The translations under genes were made by a program, and so were the position numbers. A stretch of 56,332 bases of DNA from an uncultured Candidatus Saccharibacteria bacterium (GTDB taxonomy: Bacteria > Patescibacteriota > Minisyncoccia > Phycocordibacterales > WO2-35-19), in contig CAYTTP010000003.1 of NCBI GenBank assembly GCA_964440955.1, forward strand, positions 1-56,332. The letters run 5' to 3'. This document shows positions 454-55,061 of this stretch, one piece after another. Under the pieces are notes generated by a model that ran no database searches, was not told the DNA's origin, and worked only from the letters and a program-made list of their open reading frames with translations. The stretch's first letter is position 1; each line of letters begins with the position of its first letter.

Positions 454-586
454 GCGATATATACGGAAGTGTGGCTGAGTGGATGAAAAGCAAACTGCTT
501 TGCTTTTCATCCGGAGCAAAGCGTAGGTGGCAAATATGAAGCCACTGTTCGCAAAGCGACTTCCGTTTGAGCATCGCGATATATAC
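454..586 (+). repeat. duplicated 5' leader plus 5' part of tRNA-Ser, flanking an ~90-bp hairpin-containing insert
   Basis: 29-bp direct repeat gcgatatatacggaagtgtggctgagtgg at 454-482 and 576-604. The insert contains the hairpin atgaaaagcaaaCTGCtttgcttttcat and words shared with the tRNA-associated repeat family (ccggagcaaagcgtagg). Confidence 0.55.
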
Positions 587-673
587 GGAAGTGTGGCTGA
601 GTGGTTGAAGGCACCGGTTTCGAAAACCGGCATGCTCGAAAGGGCATCAGAGGTTCAAATCCTCTCACTTCCG
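587..673 (+). tRNA. tRNA-Ser (anticodon CGA)
   Basis: Acceptor ggaagtg/cacttcc, anticodon arm ccggt-ttcgaaa-accgg, long variable arm, T-arm agagg-ttcaaat-cctct, discriminator G; no encoded CCA. Confidence 0.85.
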
Positions 674-7387: not shown

Positions 7388-7669
7388 ATGAAAAACTTAA
7401 CCGAATTTATAACTTTTTTTACCGATATGGGGCTTAGGCTTGTACCACTATTTGCTGTCCTCGCCTTCATGTATTTTGTGTGGGGAGTAGCACGCTTCAT
7501 CAAAGCGGCGGGCAATGAAAAAGAGGTGGGGGACAGCAAAAAGATACTTATTTGGGGTGTTGTCGGCCTACTCGTGCTTACAAGTATTTGGGGTATTATT
7601 TCCTTTCTCAAAGGTGAGCTAAGATTTGGCGACAATGTTGGTATTCCTCAAATAAAATTTGAAAATTAG
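7388..7669 (+). CDS. TrbC/VirB2-like pilin family protein (paralog 3)
   Basis: FMYFVWGVARFIKAAGNEKE...ILIWGVVGLLVLTSIWGIISFLKG. Confidence 0.5.
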   Translation: MKNLTEFITFFTDMGLRLVPLFAVLAFMYFVWGVARFIKAAGNEKEVGDSKKILIWGVVGLLVLTSIWGIISFLKGELRFGDNVGIPQIKFEN

Positions 7670-7679
7670 ATGAAATAAA

Positions 7680-7949
7680 ATGAATGATTTTATTGATAAA
7701 GGTTATTCGATTATCACCAATACTCTCATCCCGCTTGGGTACTTTGTTTGCCTCTTTTACTTTGCTTGGGGTATTGCAAAGTACATCAAATCGATCGGTG
7801 ACGGCAAGGAGCAGGGCAGGCAAATAATGATTTGGGGAGTAGTTGGCCTTTTTGTAGTTACGAGTATTTGGGGTATTATTGAATTTATAAAGCTCGAAGT
7901 TGGCTTGCCTTTCGATAATTCAGAGCTCGATGCAAAAGTTTATAGGTAA
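7680..7949 (+). CDS. TrbC/VirB2-like pilin family protein (paralog 4)
   Basis: YFAWGIAKYIKSIGDGKEQGRQIMIWGVVGLFVVTSIWGIIEFIK. Confidence 0.5.
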   Translation: MNDFIDKGYSIITNTLIPLGYFVCLFYFAWGIAKYIKSIGDGKEQGRQIMIWGVVGLFVVTSIWGIIEFIKLEVGLPFDNSELDAKVYR

Positions 7950-7961
7950 AAATATAAAAAC

Positions 7962-8318
7962 ATGAAAAATAATTTTAAAAAAATAATTCCGGTTTCCCTC
8001 TTCCTTTTACCAATTTTAACAAGCGCTCAACTTGATGGGACAGACAAATTTTTTGGGAAAGCAAAGTCAATCGTAAGTGATACTTTGGTACCAGGAGCAT
8101 TTTTTGTAGCCCTCGTGTATTTCTTCTACGGTATCGCCAAATACATCAAGTCTGAAGGTGCCGGCAAAGCCGAAGGCAAAATGATCATGGTGTGGGGAGT
8201 GGTCGCTTTGTTTGTTGCTTCGTCAGTTTGGGGTTTGGTCACTCTTTTACAAAAGGAAATAGGGATAAACAGTAACCCTGGCAGTATGAAAATACCAACT
8301 TTAGAAACATATAGATAA
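7962..8318 (+). CDS. TrbC/VirB2-like pilin family protein (paralog 5)
   Basis: Signal peptide; YFFYGIAKYIKSEGAGKAEGKMIMVWGVVALFVASSVWGLVTLLQ. Confidence 0.5.
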   Translation: MKNNFKKIIPVSLFLLPILTSAQLDGTDKFFGKAKSIVSDTLVPGAFFVALVYFFYGIAKYIKSEGAGKAEGKMIMVWGVVALFVASSVWGLVTLLQKEIGINSNPGSMKIPTLETYR

Positions 8319-8323
8319 TATTT

Positions 8324-8620
8324 ATGCTTACAAACACCGAAACTTTTTTGAATCAAGCTATTACTCTTTTGACCAATAGAGTCATACCTATTGTCTTTAT
8401 CCTCGCTACGCTCTACTTCTTTTGGGGCATTGTCAAATACATCAAGTCGGAAGGTGCTGGCAAAGCTGAAGGAAAAGCCATTATGGTGTGGGGAGTAGTA
8501 GCCCTTTTTGTGATGACTAGCGTATGGGGCATCGTTCGCTTGTTGAGAGTTGATTTGCTTAGTGGGCAGGACACCAACAGTATCCAAATCCCAACCGCCA
8601 CTTACGGTACTACTCGCTAA
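8324..8620 (+). CDS. TrbC/VirB2-like pilin family protein (paralog 6)
   Basis: YFFWGIVKYIKSEGAGKAEGKAIMVWGVVALFVMTSVWGIVRLLR; near-identical core to paralog 5. Confidence 0.5.
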   Translation: MLTNTETFLNQAITLLTNRVIPIVFILATLYFFWGIVKYIKSEGAGKAEGKAIMVWGVVALFVMTSVWGIVRLLRVDLLSGQDTNSIQIPTATYGTTR

Positions 8621-8751
8621 CCACTTCCCACCTACTCCCTACTCCCTCTGTGGATTACTTTTTGCTTGCAAAGGCAAAAAATGGTAAAGTAATGGTAAAT
8701 TAAAAATGTTTATTCATTTTAATTATTATTAAAAAGTATTTGCTAAATTAA

Positions 8752-9096
8752 ATGAAAAAAGTATCTATAGCAGTAGCGATGGCTCTTTTGCCACTTTCAA
8801 CCTTTGCCCAACAGCTCGGCAATATCAGCAACTTAGTTGATAGCGCAAGCGGTATAATCAATAAGGTTATACCTATATTGTTTACACTTGCTTTGCTCGG
8901 CTTCTTTTGGGGCTTGGTCAGATTTCTTTTTGGTGGTGCTGAAGACAAGGATCAGGCAAAAAACATTATGATTTGGGGCGTAGTAGCGCTTGCGGTCATG
9001 GCTTCAGTTTGGGGATTGGTCAACTTCCTTGGTTCGGCATTTAACATCAACAAGGATGCCGCTCCTTCTGTAAACCCTCTTATTCCAAAACCTTAG
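8752..9096 (+). CDS. TrbC/VirB2-like pilin family protein (paralog 7)
   Basis: Signal peptide; FFWGLVRFLFGGAEDKDQAKNIMIWGVVALAVMASVWGLVNFLG. Confidence 0.5.
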   Translation: MKKVSIAVAMALLPLSTFAQQLGNISNLVDSASGIINKVIPILFTLALLGFFWGLVRFLFGGAEDKDQAKNIMIWGVVALAVMASVWGLVNFLGSAFNINKDAAPSVNPLIPKP

Positions 9097-9118
9097 TTGG
9101 TCTTTGGTCTACAAAACA

Positions 9119-9150
9119 AAAGAGCCGTATTGTACGGCTCTTTTGTTTTC
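9119..9150 (+). terminator. rho-independent terminator
   Basis: aaagagccgta-ttg-tacggctcttt hairpin followed by a T-run. Confidence 0.6.
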
Positions 9151-9251
9151 CCTTGAATTTTATTACCTAACATTTAGAATTAGAAATATCACCCCTAGCC
9201 CCTCTTACTTTAAGAGGGGAACAACAACTTAATTTTTAATTTTCAATCCTT

Positions 9252-9515
9252 ATGCCTGTCATCAAAAGCTTGCTCAATCAAATAGCCACACTCTTTTTGA
9301 ACCCGCTCATCATTCTTGGTTTTGTTGTTGCTACACTCTATCTTTTTTGGGGTATTGGGCAAATGATACTAAACGCCGACTCAAGCAAGCTCGACGAACA
9401 TCGGAAGGGAGTTATTTGGGGCGTTGTTGGCTTACTTATCATGTTCTCCGTTTACGGCATTCTCCGTCTTGTTATCCAAACTTTTGAGATCGAGTGTAAT
9501 TTGTATTTTTGTTAG
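9252..9515 (+). CDS. TrbC/VirB2-like pilin family protein (paralog 8)
   Basis: LYLFWGIGQMILNADSSKLDEHRKGVIWGVVGLLIMFSVYGILRLV. Confidence 0.45.
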   Translation: MPVIKSLLNQIATLFLNPLIILGFVVATLYLFWGIGQMILNADSSKLDEHRKGVIWGVVGLLIMFSVYGILRLVIQTFEIECNLYFC

Positions 9516-18076: not shown

Positions 18077-18365
18077 CAATATTGTTTCGCAATATTGTTC
18101 GACCGAGCACGCAAACTGCTTTGCGTGCGTGTAGGAAGTCGAAAGCCGGAGCCATGTTGAGCGAAGCGAAACAGGCGAGGCGGGGTCGCAAGATTTTGCT
18201 AAGCAAAATACTTGTGACCGACTCCTACCGGGCGGACAAGCGTGAAGAAAATCTAAACTGCTTTAGATTTTTAGCTTGTCCGAGACGGAGCCATGTTTTT
18301 GTAGCAACAAAAACAGGCGAGTCAGGATCGTGGAAATTTTTGAGCGACGGCGATAAAATTATCCA
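18077..18365 (+). repeat. two tandem tRNA-associated repeat units (Lys locus) separated by a 19-bp copy of the tRNA-Lys 3' end
   Basis: Unit X 18077-18219 ends ...ggcggggtcgcaag-attttgc-taa-gcaaaat-acttgtgacc. Then gactcctaccgggcggaca at 18220-18238 is identical to tRNA positions 18058-18076. Unit Y starts with the 42-mer shared with 1403-1444. Both units contain caaaCTGCtttg-type hairpins. Confidence 0.65.
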
Positions 18366-18449
18366 TGATGACAATATTGCGAAGTGGTGATGATTTACGA
18401 AACTTAATATAAAACGAAGGGCACTCGATGTTCGGGTGCCCTTAGGAAT

Positions 18450-26832: not shown

Positions 26833-26904
26833 AAATGGAAAGGCGTTCACTAAAAGTGAACGTCGATATAAAGTACTTATAATTCCCTAGAACACCACTT
26901 ATGA

Positions 26905-27090
26905 GCACGTGAGAGAAAGATGAACGAACATTGGTGGTGTCCTAAGCCCGAAAGTGGCGAGGGTAAGGCCGCTTGAGATCCAAGTCGGACTACCAGCATA
27001 CCCCCAAGATCTTCTGGTTTACTCTAAAGAGAGTATTCCGCTCCATCGTGTGACGATGAAGGCTGTTTTTCGACGTCTCTCACAGGTCCA
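26905..27090 (+). ncRNA. candidate retron non-coding RNA (msr-msd-like) upstream of the RT
   Basis: 8-bp inverted repeats gtgagaga (26909-26916) and tctctcac (27076-27083) bracket roughly 160 nt of GC-rich structured sequence containing the hairpins acaccac/gtggtgt and catcg-tgtga-cgatg. Matches the a1/a2 retron architecture; not verified. Confidence 0.3.
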
Positions 27091-27135
27091 AGCCGGACTG
27101 TTTTGATTGTAGCATGTTTTTATATATAAGTTTAG

Positions 27136-28056
27136 TTGTATAAATCAAATAAAATAGGTTATCCTCTGTTCGGAGGCCTTGTGGATAAACCTGCATTTGA
27201 AAGGTATTTTCTGAGAGATGTAAATCATCAGAGTGGTAGGGTGAAAAATCGAGAAATTTTTGCTCCAAACGATTCAATGCGTGAGGTGCAAGAGGGTATA
27301 GTGGCCAAACTTCGGTCTTTGGAGATTGAGATGCCGAGCGCGACTGGTGGTGTCAGGAATGGTTCGCCAGTCAATAACGTCCTCAAACATTGGTCACCTT
27401 ACAATAAGAGTGCGAGATACTTTTTTCTGCTTGATCTAGCATCTGCTTACAAGAATGTCCTTGTGAGCGATATGTTAGTTGAACTGAAGAGGGTGTGGCC
27501 ACATGATTGCGACGAGAAGTTTGTTCAGAGTGTTATGAATCACTGCTTGATACCGGGTGAGGGTTTGGCAACTGGAGGTAACGCCTCGCCAGATATTTTC
27601 AACCTATGTATGGAGATTTCGATTGATCGGCAAATACGCTCGTATGCCGAATACAACGATCTCACCTACACTCGTTATCTCGATGATCTGACTTTCTCAT
27701 CTCCTTTTCCGATAGGTAAGAGGAAGAGGAATACGATCATCAAGATTCTCACTGAAGCTGGTTGTGTCGTTAACCATCAAAAGTCTCAGGTGCTTGATAT
27801 CGAAAAGCATCATGTGGAAATAAATGGTATCGGCTTGCGTCGTAGCGGACACTTCTTCATGCCTAGTCGGGTCTTGGATGAGTTAAAAAACTTGCTCTAT
27901 CGGGCAACTAGAGGGGAGTCCATTTCCGATTCTCTCATTCAAGGCAAGATGGGCGGGTTCATCTATCTTAGGAGAAAAGGCTTGCTTGCTCTGACCGAGA
28001 GAGAACGTAATATCCTTCGACGGTACGAGCAATATCTGCCGTTGCGCCGGGGTTAA
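27136..28056 (+). CDS. reverse transcriptase, retron-type (RT domains 1-7 with YTRYLDD)
   Basis: RT motifs REIFAPNDSMREVQEGI, SATGGVRNGSPVNNVLKH (NAxxH-like), FLLDLASAYKNV, GLATGGNASPDIFN (QGxxxSP-like), YTRYLDDLTF (retron-like YTRYADD), VEINGIGL (VTG-like). The likelier start is GTG at 27181 after GGAGG; the ORF track begins at TTG 27136. Confidence 0.75.
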   Translation: MYKSNKIGYPLFGGLVDKPAFERYFLRDVNHQSGRVKNREIFAPNDSMREVQEGIVAKLRSLEIEMPSATGGVRNGSPVNNVLKHWSPYNKSARYFFLLDLASAYKNVLVSDMLVELKRVWPHDCDEKFVQSVMNHCLIPGEGLATGGNASPDIFNLCMEISIDRQIRSYAEYNDLTYTRYLDDLTFSSPFPIGKRKRNTIIKILTEAGCVVNHQKSQVLDIEKHHVEINGIGLRRSGHFFMPSRVLDELKNLLYRATRGESISDSLIQGKMGGFIYLRRKGLLALTERERNILRRYEQYLPLRRG

Positions 28057-28130
28057 ATCCTCGGCGCTCTGTTTTTAATAGTGTGTAAAAATTTTGAAAT
28101 ATCTGGTATTGTGTGCGGAGGAGGTGAACT

Positions 28131-28535
28131 ATGTCCAGTATCTCGAATAGAGAAATGACATTTGTTGTAGCTGTTCTGTACTCTTTGCCCGAAAAGTGGC
28201 GAGGGGTTGGCCGTTCTTTCTCGTTTGAGGATGTGCAAGATAGGCTACATCTTGCTTGGCATAGACTCTATCAAGAAGGATTGCTTGGGGAGTTTGGTGA
28301 ATCGTTTTCTTTTGACGCTCTTTGTGGCTCAGACAGTCTTGGGCAAGCACTTCGCACAGCTGCGGTAGATGGGCTCATAAGGATCGGTGGCTCTGATATG
28401 GCTTATCATGTTGATGTCCTGAAGCCTGACCAAATTGATCGTATGTTAGAGTCGTGCGTAATAGACCGAAGTGCCGTGACTACTGCTGTCAAACGTCTCG
28501 AAGCTATTCTCGAAGAGAAACCCTCCCCGGCTTAG
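28131..28535 (+). CDS. hypothetical small acidic protein downstream of the RT (candidate retron accessory/effector)
   Basis: 134-aa ORF with strong GGAGGAGGTG ribosome-binding site, 75 nt after the RT stop; no recognisable family. Confidence 0.45.
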   Translation: MSSISNREMTFVVAVLYSLPEKWRGVGRSFSFEDVQDRLHLAWHRLYQEGLLGEFGESFSFDALCGSDSLGQALRTAAVDGLIRIGGSDMAYHVDVLKPDQIDRMLESCVIDRSAVTTAVKRLEAILEEKPSPA

Positions 28536-28597
28536 AGTCGGGGAGTTTGGTTTGTAATAAACTAAAAATCTGTTAAAATCTCAAAAGTAATAATATT

Positions 28598-28681
28598 GCG
28601 TCGGTGGTAGAGTGGTCAATTACAACAGACTGTAAATCTGTCGCCCATTGGGCTACGCAGGTTCGAATCCTGCCCGGCGCA
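28598..28681 (+). tRNA. tRNA-Tyr (anticodon GTA)
   Basis: Acceptor gcgtcgg/ccggcgc, anticodon arm acaga-ctgtaaa-tctgt, long variable arm cgcccattgggctac, T-arm gcagg-ttcgaat-cctgc; no encoded CCA. Confidence 0.8.
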
Positions 28682-28872
28682 CAAAATAAAACCCAGCTTC
28701 TGCTGGTGTTTTATTTTGTGCGCCGGAAGTGCAGCTTTGTGTAGCAAAGCGTAGCACGGATTCGAAAGGCGGAAGAAATTTTTTAGCAAAAAAATTTCTG
28801 AGCCGGGGTCGCGAGCGATTTTGCTTGACTGAAGCAAAATCGACTTGTGACCGAATCCTGCCCGGCGCACCA
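28682..28872 (+). repeat. tRNA-associated repeat unit (Tyr locus) ending in a copy of the tRNA-Tyr 3' end with CCA
   Basis: Long hairpin gcgcacaaaataaaacccagc/gctggtgttttattttgtgcgc, then ...gagccggggtcgcgagcg-gattttgc..gcaaaatc-gacttgtgacc followed by cgaatcctgcccggcgcaCCA (28852-28872). The gene itself reads ...ggcgcaCAA. Confidence 0.65.
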
Positions 28873-29285
28873 CTTCGCTCTGTTATCACAGAGCTTCGCG
28901 GTGCAAGCACAAAAAGATCCCCAGAGATGGTGGTATTTTTGTTATAATTAAGCGAAGTGGTCCCGCGGAGCTAAACCCAGCAAAGCTTTAGCGAAGTTGG
29001 GTAGCGGAGTGGGGCACAAATAAAATTATATGAAAAAGACGCCTTGAGAGGCGTCTGGATGAGGGTGGGGAGTCAGGCTGCCGCAGGACGCGGATTATCC
29101 TATTCTCATAGGACAGACCGCTATTTGCCTATCTCTACCCACCCTCAAGCGGTGAGGATGAAGAGAGCTTCACGCAGGGCGCTTGCGCTGGCACCTGTGT
29201 GGGGTGGGTTGCTCAATCTCCATCCTCACGCATTTACTATTATAGCAAATGTTTGATTGCCTGTCAATAAATTTCAGTGGAAAGA

Positions 29286-30584
29286 TTATTTACCAATCAG
29301 GGCTTCACTCCATTTGTAAATATTGCCCGCACCCATAAGGACGATGCAGAGAGGTTTATCTGATTTTATCGTTTCTATTTCTCGTTTTAGTTCCCCAGCA
29401 TTTTCTACTGTATTAGCTTCAGTATGTTTATTGACTGCTTCAGCAAGGGTTTGGTTCGTCACTACACCTGTGGCATTTTCCTTATTTATATATATAGGCG
29501 CAATGAAAACTTTGTCGGCAATTTTTAGCGATTCGACAAAATCGTCAAAAAACATTTTGGTTCGGAGTTCTTGATGTGGTTCGAAAACACAGACAAGGGT
29601 GTGTTCTGGGTATTCCCCCTTTAGAGCTGAAAGGGAAGCGGTGATTTCGGTTGGGTGGTGAGCATAATCCGTATAAAAAATATTTCCATCTTTTTCGTCT
29701 ACCTTTTCGAGTCTTCTCCATGTGCCTCTAAAATCTTTTAGAGCATTTTCTGATTTTTCTTTTGGGATGTTTAAACTTTCAGTTGCCGTAATAGATGCTT
29801 TGGCGTCTAAGATATTGTGCTTCCCTGGTACTAAGAGTTTTATATTCAAATCATTTTTTGTGTAATCCAAAACTTTAGCTTGAACATTTTTCAAAACTGG
29901 TTCGATGTTTGGGTGGTTGGGGTCGGTCACGATAAACCCATCTCGACCAACTTTTTGGGCTATTTCTTCAAAAGCATTTTGAATGTCGGCAAGGTCTTTG
30001 TAATAGTCGAGGTGATCAGCTTCAATATTGGTGATCACTAAAATAGAAGGGGAGAGATTTAAAAATGATCTTTTATATTCACATGCCTCGACGACCAGAT
30101 ATTTTGATTTGCCAGCGACGAAGTTTGTGTATTCTTGGGCCTTTGAATCAATCATTTTCGAACCAACAACGATAGTCGGGTCGAAGCCTGCTTCTTGGAG
30201 AATGTGGCCGATCATGGCAGTGGTCGTCGTTTTGCCGTGAGTGCCAGCTATCGCGATTGTATACATTTGCTTTGAAAGTTCTCCTAAAGCTTGAGGATAG
30301 GTGATACAAGTAAGACCTCGTTTGCGAGCCTCGATAAGCTCTGGATTTTCCTCTGTTATCGCTACGGTATAGATGACAATCTCGACATTATTACCAATAT
30401 TTTCGGGCCTTTGACCGATCATAATTTCAACTCCTATTTTTTGGAGTGCCTCGGTTATTTCTGAAGCAGAATTATCCGAGCCGGCTACCTTTTTGCCTTG
30501 CAAGACAAGCATTTTGGCGATGGCTGAAATCCCAATCCCGCCAATGCCTATAAAGTGATAGTTGTTTTTTGAAAAGATATCCAC
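29286..30584 (-). CDS. murC: UDP-N-acetylmuramate--L-alanine ligase
   Basis: FIGIGGIGISAIA, AIAGTHGKTTTTAMI, Mur ligase central and C-terminal domains. Confidence 0.9.
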   Translation of the reverse strand: MDIFSKNNYHFIGIGGIGISAIAKMLVLQGKKVAGSDNSASEITEALQKIGVEIMIGQRPENIGNNVEIVIYTVAITEENPELIEARKRGLTCITYPQALGELSKQMYTIAIAGTHGKTTTTAMIGHILQEAGFDPTIVVGSKMIDSKAQEYTNFVAGKSKYLVVEACEYKRSFLNLSPSILVITNIEADHLDYYKDLADIQNAFEEIAQKVGRDGFIVTDPNHPNIEPVLKNVQAKVLDYTKNDLNIKLLVPGKHNILDAKASITATESLNIPKEKSENALKDFRGTWRRLEKVDEKDGNIFYTDYAHHPTEITASLSALKGEYPEHTLVCVFEPHQELRTKMFFDDFVESLKIADKVFIAPIYINKENATGVVTNQTLAEAVNKHTEANTVENAGELKREIETIKSDKPLCIVLMGAGNIYKWSEALIGK

Positions 30585-35725: not shown

Positions 35726-35896
35726 CACACATAATTTTCTGCTGAAAATTTGTTCTGCTCGGTGCACCTGCGCAAGGCACGCTCGGGGAAGTTTCTGAAT
35801 GGCTCGTCCCTCATTGCAAATAATTAGCTTTGTGTTATTATTGGCTCTGTCCTAAATGGTATCTTAATTTTCAATCTTTAATTCTAAATTCAAAAA

Positions 35897-36104: not shown

Positions 36105-36205
36105 TAGGGCCTATAGTTCACCATGTCATTCGCGAATGACGTGGTCAGTGGTAGAATAGCGGTCTCCACCCCGTCGCTCGCGAGCGACAGGGTCCAAAAC
36201 CAATA
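36105..36205 (+). pseudogene. degenerate tRNA-Trp-like 5' fragment interrupted by two small palindromic insertions
   Basis: gggccta-ta-gttca[ccatgtcattcgcgaatgacgtgg]tcagtggtag-aat-agcggtctcca[ccccgtcgctcgcgagcgacagggt]ccaaaacc parallels the downstream tRNA-Trp (gggtgat-ta-gtta-agtggcat-aat-agcggtctccaaaacc) but lacks a 3' half. Confidence 0.4.
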
Positions 36206-36209
36206 CCAG

Positions 36210-36470
36210 ATGTATTACGTCTATATTCTTAAAAATTTAGAGTCTGACTACTTATACATAGGCTACAGTTGTAATCTCAGAAGGAGAATAGAAGAACATA
36301 AAAGTGGTAAGGTTTATACCACCAAGCGATTAGGTAAAAATATCGAGCTTATTTACTACGAAGCTTATAAGAGCAAAGAGGATGCGCAGGATAGGGAAAA
36401 GAGTTTTAAAAAATCTGGTTCAGTGTATAATGGCCTTATTAAAAGAATAAAGAGAAGTAGGGGTGATTAG
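36210..36470 (+). CDS. GIY-YIG family nuclease (small, YhbQ/homing-endonuclease-like)
   Basis: MYYVYILKNLESDYLYIGYSCNLRRRIEEHKSG... has the GIY-(10)-YIG ... R ... E/H motif order. ATG read from the ORF-track frame; the stop overlaps the tRNA-Trp 5' end. Confidence 0.65.
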   Translation: MYYVYILKNLESDYLYIGYSCNLRRRIEEHKSGKVYTTKRLGKNIELIYYEAYKSKEDAQDREKSFKKSGSVYNGLIKRIKRSRGD

Positions 36471-36534
36471 TTAAGTGGCATAATAGCGGTCTCCAAAACC
36501 GCGGTCGTGGGTTCGATTCCCTCATCACCCGCCA
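36461..36534 (+). tRNA. tRNA-Trp (anticodon CCA), CCA encoded
   Basis: Acceptor gggtgat/atcaccc, D-arm gtta-agtggca-taat, anticodon arm gcggt-ctccaaa-accgc, T-arm gtggg-ttcgatt-ccctc (one U-U mismatch), discriminator G then CCA. Confidence 0.65.
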
Positions 36535-41030: not shown

Positions 41031-41190
41031 CAGATTGAGCAAAGCGAAAGTGGTGTCGGAGAGGCGTAGCTTTTTGTAAAAAAGCGTTACGCGGACTTGA
41101 AACCCGATTGAGATTTTTTAGGAGTATCGCGAACTAAAAAACCAATTGGGGTACTGAGTCTGTAAGACTCAAGTCCTCTCTCCGGCACCA
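41031..41190 (+). repeat. tRNA-associated repeat unit (Leu-CAA locus, diverged) ending in a copy of the tRNA 3' end with CCA
   Basis: gagcaaagcgaaag...ctgtaagac followed by tcaagtcctctctccggcaCCA (41169-41190), copying tRNA positions 41012-41030; the gene continues ...ggcaCAG. Confidence 0.55.
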
Positions 41191-54656: not shown

Positions 54657-54729
54657 TGGTTGCCTAAGGGGTGATGTTTCTGGTACAATGCTCTCGTTCT
54701 TTGAAATTCCAAAAATTAGATTTTTTTGC

Positions 54730-55061
54730 TCCGGGATAGCTCAGCGGTAGAGCGAGCGACTGTGTCGTGACGCAGCTTCCAAAAGAAATTTTGGTTGAAA
54801 AACGAGGTGAATTCGGGGGAACCCCAAGTGGGCAATCCCGAGCCAATCCTAAATTAAAGAAAGATATTGTTGTGTAAAAACTTTAATTAAGGCAGGTGTA
54901 GAGACTATTCCGAAAGGAAGTACTTACTCCGTATTTCGGAGTCGGGAAGCGCCTCGCTCCTAATAGCCAATTTGGTTAAAGGAGATGATATAGTCCATAC
55001 TTCTAGTAATAGAAGAGAATATGTAATCGCTTGGTCGTAGGTTCGATCCCTACTCCCGGAG
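54730..55061 (+). tRNA. tRNA-Asn (anticodon GTT) interrupted by a group I intron in the anticodon loop
   Basis: 5' exon 54730-54763: tccggga-ta-gctc-agcggta-gagc-g-agcga-ctgt. 3' exon 55024-55061: taa-tcgct-tggtc-gtagg-ttcgatc-cctac-tcccgga-g. U1:A72 and G73 fit Asn; the 5' splice site follows a U and the intron ends in G. Confidence 0.7.
54764..55023 (+). other. group I self-splicing intron (~260 nt) within tRNA-Asn
   Basis: Conserved core elements R-like GTAGAGACTA (about 54897), S-like GATATAGTCC (about 54988), P-like AATTCGGGGGAA; the internal guide GCAG can pair with the exon end CTGT (U-G at the splice site); no ORF inside. Confidence 0.6.

Follow-up and report, generated by a model that had tools for sequence, protein, structure and literature searches.

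A small structured element behind tRNA-Tyr of a Saccharibacteria bacterium: a probable non-coding insertion with a target-derived duplication, and its relatives in Patescibacteria

Behind the tRNA-Tyr(GTA) gene of an uncultured Candidatus Saccharibacteria bacterium lies a short repeat unit that ends in a second copy of the 3' end of the gene. We analyzed this candidate insertion element within a stretch of 56,332 nucleotides (contig CAYTTP010000003.1 of the assembly GCA_964440955.1), referred to below as the window. A sequence-only reading of the same DNA had reported that the displaced copy carries a CCA which the functional gene lacks. It proposed two histories: an element that integrated into an ancestral CCA-encoding gene and supplied a replacement 3' end, or a mature CCA-bearing tRNA that was reverse-copied, with a reverse transcriptase (RT) gene close at hand.

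The repeat unit behind tRNA-Tyr

Between ClpB and tRNA-Tyr the + strand carries a retron-type RT and a 134-aa open reading frame (ORF) without family match (27136-28535), and murC follows beyond the element. The RVT_1 ORF itself spans 27136-28056, about 540 bp upstream of the tRNA and thus as near as had been stated, with the 134-aa ORF lying between the two. The parts of the tRNA-Tyr locus are as follows.

28598-28681, + strand: intact tRNA-Tyr(GTA), called by ARAGORN and by the Rfam tRNA model at 60.6 bits (Rfam/ARAGORN end 28681/2), with the discriminator A at 28681
28664-28682, + strand: S1, the upstream copy of a 19-nt repeat, inside the functional gene (repeat search)
28683-28717, + strand: left module consisting of an A-tract, the GC hairpin CCAGC-TTCT-GCTGG and a T-tract (hairpin, fold and terminator-like site)
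28718-28726, + strand: A5', GTGCGCCGG, antisense to the 3' strand of the tRNA acceptor, through which the palindrome reaches into the gene (19/19 complementary, inverted repeat I2)
28727-28757, + strand: hp1, a hairpin that splits the antisense segment at the acceptor/T-stem junction (fold; equal position in other family members)
28758-28766, + strand: A3', the putative guide, GGATTCGAA, antisense to tRNA positions 54-62 and followed by one unpaired A (sequence)
28767-28852, + strand: structured core with a 3-bp helix GGC/GCC, hp2 flanked by GGA..GAG, and then GGGGTCGCGAG-hp3-ACTTGTGAC (match to model R1 at 28764-28852, covariation)
28852-28872, + strand: S2, the displaced 19-nt tRNA 3' end plus CA, ending ..GCACCA (sequence, repeat search)
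28873-28968, + strand: S2 flank, in which lies another palindrome, an imperfect one (I1, an inverted repeat of 29 nt, 76% complementary)

The 18-mer CGAATCCTGCCCGGCGCA has two exact matches, at 28664 and 28852, against a chance expectation of 0.01. The full exact direct repeat is 19 nt long (CGAATCCTGCCCGGCGCAC) and runs from C56 of the T-loop to position 74, with its copies at 28664-28682 and 28852-28870. The repeat unit, estimated before at about 170 bp, measures 169 bp between the copies at a spacing of 188 nt. Direct reading of the sequence bears out that the gene lacks an encoded CCA (..GCA, then CAA) and that only the displaced copy has one: the 19-nt repeat is followed by AA in the gene and by CA downstream, which gives ..GCA-CCA. 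The long perfect hairpin that takes in the tRNA 3' end is likewise present, with 19-nt arms (28674-28692 and 28708-28726) of 100% complementarity. With an inner stem of 5 bp (28693-28697 and 28702-28706) the hairpin grows to 24 bp, one T being bulged.

A terminator-like site is predicted for both strands at 28693-28706, and on these predictions the left module looks like an intrinsic terminator for tRNA-Tyr. The ORF list holds no ORF inside the 169-bp insert. Folded alone, the element reaches -99 kcal/mol (z = -10.8) and adopts exactly the predicted helices; the last base pair of the core is formed with the first C of S2. In the flank of S2, GCGAAGTGGTCCCGCGG at 28952-28968 is antisense to S2 plus CCACTTCGC, and this palindromic flank is probably the remnant of an older core-less insertion.

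A family with a conserved structured core

The core was modeled from 19 copies as the covariance model R1, which matched 114 copies in 100 sources. In the 114-copy alignment, standard pairs occupy 97.7% of the pair cells as compared with 74.5% after shuffling and ~40% with slid partners, counts that are somewhat inflated because the alignment was fitted to R1 itself. Compensatory changes occur in 21 of the 23 pairs, one G.U pair is invariant (110/110), and the middle pair of the 3-bp helix is seen in all four Watson-Crick forms; the helix beside the target was fixed by the search motif, while the variable hairpins and the 3-bp helix were not. The signal depends on the strand. On the + strand the three window copies reach 53-64 bits, as against 11-14 bits on the - strand; for the tRNA-Tyr core the values are 55.2 and 11.5. 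The core is thus a strand-specific, conserved structured motif of single-stranded nucleic acid, described by R1.

To outline the family, the type-1 motif GGGGTCGCRAG-N8-38-CTTGTGAC was scanned across one genome per species. At least 118 loci were found, nearly all in Patescibacteria and several in Elusimicrobia; Saccharibacteria, Paceibacterota, Parcubacteria, Nomurabacteria, Berkelbacteria and Kaiserbacteria are among the groups in the matches listed. A few GC-rich matches occur without the surrounding architecture and are probably due to chance. The association with tRNA genes is close and co-oriented: a tRNA on the same strand ends 60-280 nt upstream in 73 of 123 motif matches and starts 12-120 nt downstream in 12, and none of the 123 has a tRNA on the opposite strand within 400 nt. 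All tRNA isotypes are represented, and tmRNA 3' ends as well, the tmRNA genes likewise being on the strand of the core; insertions were also found behind a protein gene and in tRNA 5' fragments.

The elements share a common order, namely the intact gene, an A-tract with GC hairpin and T-tract, A5', hp1, A3' (positions 54-62/65), an unpaired purine, the core, and the duplicated target fragment. Nearly all copies are 100-190 bp long and without an ORF, tandem and nested copies occur, and the duplicate varies from 9 to 59 nt within the family. The plan extends beyond the type-1 core: with the tRNA-Tyr 3' half as bait, 117 metagenomic loci were retrieved, of which 16 have a downstream duplicate, and the cores of these 16 belong to several unrelated types within the same overall plan. 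A full-text literature search, with the core sequence included, found no description of the element. In Rfam 15 only tRNA reached the gathering threshold, all else staying at or below 22 bits with E of at least 0.07 (28560-29300 screened to E<=10). A 2026 survey of tRNA introns in Patescibacteria concerns group I introns, and the passages of it that were searched make no mention of these elements (PMC13011429).

The behavior of the family outside tRNA genes is best illustrated by two genomes (L044 and L119). These hold a type-1 element at an orthologous position behind a protein gene that ends in zinc-ribbon-like repeats, and the displaced fragment is a decayed copy of the last ~100+ nt of that gene. 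The outcome of inserting and regenerating the 3' end is therefore seen in a protein-coding gene too. Two further variations were noted. Eight loci (L011, L012, L022, L038, L074, L075, L080 and L086) have an extra module of 12-14 nt, CGAAAGTGTACTCA or close variants, between core and displaced fragment, and this module resembles the GTGTACTG motif of the type-2 right end. At L058 (2751-2900), a tRNA-Trp apparently has a type-1 core inside it, placed behind ..GGTAGAG in the D-arm and followed by the anticodon arm and the 3' half; the junction contains 20 masked N's.

Within the window, a k-mer and repeat survey showed that at five of the ten tRNA genes the 3' part of the gene is repeated downstream, around an insert of 100-190 bp. 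All are built alike. The intact tRNA is followed by a palindrome resembling a terminator, then by a segment that is antisense to that tRNA's 3' part, by the structured core and by the duplicated tRNA 3' fragment. Besides tRNA-Tyr, these are the following.

654-850, + strand: tRNA-Ser(CGA) element with a type-2 core ending GGTGTACTGAAACTGTAAGT; 47-nt duplicate at 654-700 and 804-850 (repeat survey)
1400-1545, + strand: tRNA-Ala(GGC) element of type 1 (R1 53 bits); 9-nt duplicate CACAAGCGT at 1537-1545, which starts at the acceptor end
18078-18372, + strand: two tandem elements at tRNA-Lys(CTT), the first with a type-1 core (63.8 bits) and a 21-nt duplicate at 18219-18239, the second at 18238-18372
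41032-41190, + strand: tRNA-Leu(CAA) element of type 2; 20-nt duplicate at 41169-41188, then CA, so that the CCA is on the copy only

The type-1 right end, GGGGTCGCRAG-hairpin-ACTTGTGAC, is common to the Tyr, Lys and Ala elements; Ser and Leu share a different, type-2 right end. Logan short-read contigs of the same strain break inside the tRNA-Tyr insert, and in one of them this insert is joined to a tRNA-Ser(GCT) locus with a left part of its own. Such breaks and mis-joins are expected when an assembler meets a dispersed genomic repeat.

Other parts of the window resemble these elements to varying degrees. The first 42 nt (AAGCGTGAAGAAAATCTAAACTGCTTTAGATTTTTAGCTTGT) are identical between the Ala element (1400-1443) and the second Lys element (18238-18281), the next antisense bases differ (GGA vs CCG), and so do the cores; here modules of the elements seem to have been exchanged. 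On the 5' side of tRNA-Ser(CGA), 454-604 (+) contains a 29-nt duplication (454-482 and 576-604) of the leader and the first 18 nt of the gene, around an insert of ~93 nt that includes a hairpin with a AAACTGCTTT loop. This gene accordingly carries insertions on both sides. At 36107-36470 (+), a 5' pseudo-fragment of tRNA-Trp holds two palindromic insertions of 24-25 nt. It is accompanied by an 84-aa ORF at 36210-36464, GIY-YIG-like as judged from its sequence, and followed by the intact tRNA-Trp at 36461-36534; a GIY-YIG gene is annotated beside tRNA-Trp. This case mirrors the 3' duplications, yet on the 5' side and with protein-coding cargo. Finally, a weak match to the core model on the - strand (35729-35778, 17 bits, E ~0.02) includes a typical hp3 sequence, AUUUUCAGCAGAAAAU, and may be a degenerate element fragment away from any tRNA.

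Origin of the duplicate and rival explanations

The origin of the duplicate is indicated by two elements that are ~94% identical over ~150 nt, a stretch that opens directly behind the tRNA and closes with the right module. One lies behind tRNA-Lys(CTT) (L011) and the other behind tRNA-Arg(TCT) (L022), and downstream of each comes a 3' fragment of the tRNA behind which it lies; the tRNA bodies and the outer flanks are unrelated. The duplicate therefore appears to have been copied from the target, as an element carrying its own tRNA segment would not give this pattern. Presence and absence of the element can be compared in two related genomes with ~80-85% identical upstream DNA: tRNA-Tyr is bare in L194 and occupied in L173, and the flank after the downstream copy in L173 is the sequence that follows the tRNA-Tyr gene in L194. 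By analogy with these pairs, S2 at our locus would be the original tRNA-Tyr gene end with its original downstream flank, and the 169 bp would be inserted DNA.

A comparison of empty and occupied tRNA-Tyr sites in close relatives, which had been suggested as a check, could be made in part. The ClpB-tRNA-Tyr-murC locus is empty in L242 and L241, and the syntenic locus in L240 has a different variant with a 19/19 duplicate. The nearest MurC is 67% identical. Exact-protein look-ups returned only contigs of the same strain, which end in or near the repeat. Of the two histories proposed earlier, that of an element entering an ancestral CCA gene holds in its main points, the insertion and the non-CCA end of the functional gene; it needs the refinement that, on the Lys/Arg pair, the 3' end seems to derive from the target and not to be supplied by the element.

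The CCA itself does not mark the family. Near-exact downstream duplicates were present at 48 tRNA genes. Of their displaced copies 10 (21%) have CCA behind them, and so do 7 of the functional copies; in 5 cases only the copy has it, in 2 only the gene. As background, 75 of 312 element-free tRNA genes from the same loci (24%) encode CCA. The proposed general rule that displaced copies carry CCA thus fails, and the displaced copies look like a random sample of native gene ends. Among tRNA-Tyr genes with the same 3' half, CCA is encoded in 32 of 87 genes without duplicate and stands after the downstream copy in 1 of 16 with duplicate. In the window, three of ten tRNA genes encode CCA and seven do not, so that the organism would have to add CCA enzymatically. 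The CCA of the Tyr and Leu(CAA) copies most plausibly reflects insertions at CCA-encoding genes with a duplication that stopped at C74. If the insertion reading is true, the asymmetry in CCA is nothing unusual, a side effect of insertion at such a gene, and not evidence of tRNA reverse transcription.

Taken together, we read the 169 bp behind tRNA-Tyr as a small non-coding insertion element with a target-derived duplication, and put the probability of this at about 0.7. The element would be a small, non-coding and non-autonomous insertion from a family widespread in Patescibacteria, also known as the candidate phyla radiation (CPR), and present in Elusimicrobia. It would enter tRNA and tmRNA genes, occasionally others, always co-oriented and usually between T-loop positions 55 and 56, and would duplicate the target from the insertion point to the gene end (9-59 nt). 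The gene would thereby stay intact (S1), with the original 3' end and flank left downstream (S2) and the terminator-like palindrome of the element now ending the tRNA transcription unit. For tRNA-Tyr, the ancestral gene would have ended ..GCA-CCA; with a duplication ending at C74, the functional gene now reads ..GCA-CAA and would need CCA to be added after transcription. The ancestral empty junction would be ..GGTT joined directly to CGAATCCTGCCCGGCGCACCACTTCGC, and an excised or circular form would have the junction ..CTTGTGAC / CGAATCC..-trailer. In the element, the antisense takes in 2 nt upstream of the insertion point and 9-20 nt downstream of it, is often split by a hairpin, and has one unpaired purine after it. 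The core comprises two helices, one with the invariant G.U, and makes its final base pair with the first target nucleotide. We infer that the antisense selects the target by pairing and that an enzyme encoded elsewhere recognizes the core, with a single-stranded intermediate.

The part played by the antisense segment is less certain. The segment left of the core is Watson-Crick complementary to tRNA positions 54-61 in at least 94% of 54 T-loop-class elements, often to position 65. One best register is common to 35 of 40 evaluable elements, with pairing from target position -2 to at least +9, followed by one unpaired purine and the core. The -2..+9 register is also found at targets other than the T-loop, namely at a tRNA acceptor end, at the 3' region of a protein gene (L044) and at L081. 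In the L011/L022 pair the antisense matches the shared T-loop only and was not re-templated to the new T-stem, which argues that it belongs to the element. The Tyr and Ser(GCT) elements of this genome share at least 31 nt of core sequence and have different antisense segments, so modules seem to have been exchanged. This pattern in the sequences suggests that the antisense may be a guide that sets the insertion point by base pairing; alternatively, it may take part in cleaving or processing the end of the gene, or reflect a palindrome that evolves in concert. Tentatively, these would be new guide-bearing miniature mobile elements, made of a ~70-nt scaffold of RNA or single-stranded DNA and an antisense guide of 9-20 nt, and inserted 2 nt into the paired target by a trans-acting enzyme; we find this possible and rather doubtful. 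With similar reserve, the default target might be the near-universal T-loop of tRNA and tmRNA, retargetable to tRNA ends and to 3' regions of protein genes. If targets are indeed chosen by base pairing, the partner enzyme would be worth considering as a compact, programmable system for insertion.

Several observations weigh against an insertion of this kind. One insertion, that behind the protein gene of L044 and L119, is kept at the same position in two genomes, and the databases hold no close relative for an empty-site test of the exact tRNA-Tyr locus. At loci with a decayed displaced copy, the antisense still fits the functional gene and not the copy, which points to selection or gene conversion, and possibly to a function at the level of the host, rather than to pure selfish decay. 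G.U-type mismatches are not favored in the guide (19 G.U vs 20 A.C in the 54 elements), a count on which RNA-specific G.U tolerance of the guide was rejected. A terminator-like site lies between tRNA and core and no promoter was found for the element, so any role at the RNA level would need read-through. On these grounds the core might act as RNA or as single-stranded DNA, the invariant G.U notwithstanding. Lastly, no transposase, integrase or RT is consistently near the element among ~1,150 neighboring ORFs clustered from ~110 loci.

These neighbors include large serine recombinases near three loci, GIY-YIG genes near four and a 220-aa helix-turn-helix (HTH) protein near seven, none of them inside the element. 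As a search for the partner protein, the clustering gave only housekeeping synteny (MiaA, ClpB) and sporadic genes. The HTH protein (~220 aa) has an N-terminal resolvase-like HTH and an uncharacterized C-terminal domain with the motif LYWAEGNK (L125, L145, L190, L217, L095, L006 and L022). Its gene lies immediately upstream of tRNA-Trp or tRNA-Tyr, sometimes overlapping it, and was rejected as partner on account of this fixed position. A 3.4-kb gene-carrying interval at L068, which ends in a core and a tRNA-Val fragment, was inspected for cargo and holds a protein kinase and ORFs without assigned function, and no recombinase. All five window elements are on the leading (+) strand. However, no such bias exists among 302 tRNAs assigned by local GC skew, where 29 of 50 element-bearing (58%) and 152 of 252 element-free tRNAs (60%) are on this strand, and an IS200/IS605-like single-strand model is weakened accordingly.

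Direct repeats from the T-loop to the 3' end, as seen here (19 nt, spacing 188), are the textbook signature of T-loop-class integrases (Reiter 1989, Williams 2002). Hence an integrase might have recombined an element-borne attP containing the tRNA 3' end with the gene, a later deletion of most of the element leaving attL and attR 169 bp apart. The tandem arrays are compatible with such a remnant, as are the large serine recombinase genes 50-170 nt from the tRNA or element in L006, L097 and L076, the L068 interval, and the known ssrA islands of Dehalococcoides with ~20-nt repeats and serine recombinases (PMC3146451). We nevertheless hold it unlikely, given that the same element stands behind different tRNAs with target-specific duplicates of variable length, that nearly all copies are 100-190 bp without ORF, and that no recombinase lies between S1 and core in ~110 loci. 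Furthermore, more than 110 copies with one structured core, compensatory changes and an invariant G.U are unlike the arm sites of integrases, and 2.9 million viral contigs (IMG/VR) yielded one genuine core, on which count a phage origin was rejected. Somewhat less likely again is that the element is no mobile DNA at all but a host-beneficial RNA module of tRNA transcription units, either a cis-acting terminator or processing element or a tRNA-like small RNA, that spread by duplication and is kept by selection. The core sequence is conserved across phyla with its invariant G.U, the antisense keeps its match to the functional tRNA even as the displaced copy decays, a terminator-like hairpin is provided by the element, whose position is conserved in L044 and L119, and antisense, hp1, core and S2 together fold as an acceptor/T-stem mimic ending in CCA. 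Yet the displaced copy that is required to close this fold is often degenerate, and the terminator lies upstream of a core for which no promoter was detected. Related loci differ in presence and absence, only a subset of tRNAs carry the element, and tandem and nested copies as well as insertions in a protein gene and in tRNA 5' fragments are hard to reconcile with such a module.

The second history of the sequence-only reading was taken more broadly as a retro-copy: the nearby RT, or another one, would have copied either the mature tRNA-Tyr with its CCA tail or a cDNA primed by the tRNA, and this copy would have entered the DNA downstream. It is highly improbable on the present evidence and was rejected. 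It would explain the CCA of the displaced copy, the RVT_1 ORF 540 bp upstream and the possible tRNA-like fold of the element with S2. But CCA on displaced copies is at background, both family-wide and in the tRNA-Tyr set; the copy begins at C56 and is not a full tRNA; and the antisense segment complements ..GCAC-AAAATAAAAC, which is the genomic trailer, rather than ..CCA. The 306-aa RT gives its best scores against retron RT profiles, and retron RTs copy their own non-coding RNA; in this cassette, the msr/msd RNA would be expected at ~26833-27135. No homologue of the RT or the 134-aa ORF was found by tblastn over ~230 other fetched loci, many of them element-bearing, the only match being the window itself. 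The cassette is absent between ClpB and tRNA-Tyr at the orthologous locus of L242, and so looks like an independently acquired insertion of the defense type. Still more remote is a T-loop intron, in which the true tRNA would consist of the 5' part and S2, with 188 nt (S1 to core) spliced out. The minimum-energy fold of a co-transcript does pair the 5' acceptor strand of the tRNA with S2 and S1 with the antisense, and group I introns, of which the window holds one, are common in CPR tRNAs according to the survey mentioned above (PMC13011429). The upstream gene is complete without splicing, however, and no Rfam intron or ribozyme matched 28560-29300 at E<=10. In-silico removal of the insert around 125 cores never restored a tRNA that lacked an intact neighboring copy; with no core interrupting the sole copy of a tRNA, the element is not an obligatory intron.

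Other features of the window and comparison with known systems

Three further features of the window were noted. Between the element and murC, the - strand holds a candidate for an unannotated structured transcript of ~195 nt (29037-29232), with a perfect TTGACA-17-TATAAT promoter at 29267-29239, an intrinsic terminator at 29056-29037 and a fold of -100 kcal/mol (z = -8.25); at E<=10 nothing in Rfam matches it. At 54754-55016 (+), a group I intron (78.2 bits in Rfam) interrupts a tRNA in the anticodon loop after ..GACTGT, with exons at ~54729-54765 and 55017-55050 for which ARAGORN makes no call. This intron looks like the position 35/36 introns that have been described for Asn and Asp tRNAs of Patescibacteria (PMC13011429). 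Three to four tandem paralogous segments at 7544-9363 (+), 60-80% identical with cores of 65-98 nt and a spacing of 280-485 nt, suggest an array of small related membrane-protein genes.

If the insertion reading is correct, Patescibacteria, whose ~1-Mb genomes are thought to be poor in mobile DNA, carry an abundant and conserved family of tiny elements that colonize tRNA and tmRNA genes without destroying them. It would also explain the contig breaks at tRNA genes and the stray tRNA fragments in CPR assemblies, and the element would be a useful marker for strain-level change in these uncultured bacteria.

When compared with known systems, the elements share individual traits with several of them. 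The retron cassette adjoins the tRNA-Tyr locus and its RT fits retron profiles, but it lies outside the element and is absent from all other element loci and from the orthologous locus. MITEs (miniature inverted-repeat transposable elements) and the palindrome-associated elements (PATEs) of the IS200/IS605 type are likewise small, non-coding, multi-copy, hairpin-rich and presumably mobilized in trans, with structure on one strand. The elements described here have no terminal inverted repeats (their ends are AAAATAAAAC.. and ..ACTTGTGAC) and a duplication of 9-59 nt, whereas MITE duplications are short and fixed; in contrast to PATEs, they have a duplication at all and no bias to the lagging-strand template. 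With tRNA-derived short interspersed elements (SINEs) and tRNA-like 3' structures they have in common the acceptor/T-stem mimic that possibly ends in CCA and variable duplications that resemble target-primed insertion. The present elements differ in being bacterial and in having no internal promoter, no A-tail and no partner RT found.

Internal sequences that pair with the target are used by group II introns (EBS/IBS), by IS200/IS605 elements (tetranucleotides) and by IS110/IS1111 elements (bridge/seek RNAs). The likeness to these is in logic only, and consists of a target-complementary sequence at a fixed distance from the insertion point, beside a structured scaffold. Here the pairing is mostly downstream, on one strand and 9-20 nt long, the target is duplicated, and the element encodes no ribozyme domains, RT or DEDD recombinase. 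For an IS110-type bridge-RNA element in particular, the guide is single-stranded and the ORF is missing; recombinases were surveyed among the neighboring ORFs only. As regards integrative elements of tRNA and tmRNA genes, the similarities comprise insertion at the 3' side of a stable-RNA gene, a repeat from the T-loop to the gene end, a gene that remains functional, a displaced fragment and tandem arrays. T-loop-class att sites are well known among these, and phage 21 and e14 replace the 3' end of icd in a comparable manner. The differences are the lack of integrase and cargo, the size of 100-190 bp, the variety of tRNAs used, the structured core and the internal antisense. Even so, with an intact gene, a displaced 3' fragment and tandem arrays, the outcome is the same as that of classical tRNA-gene integration.

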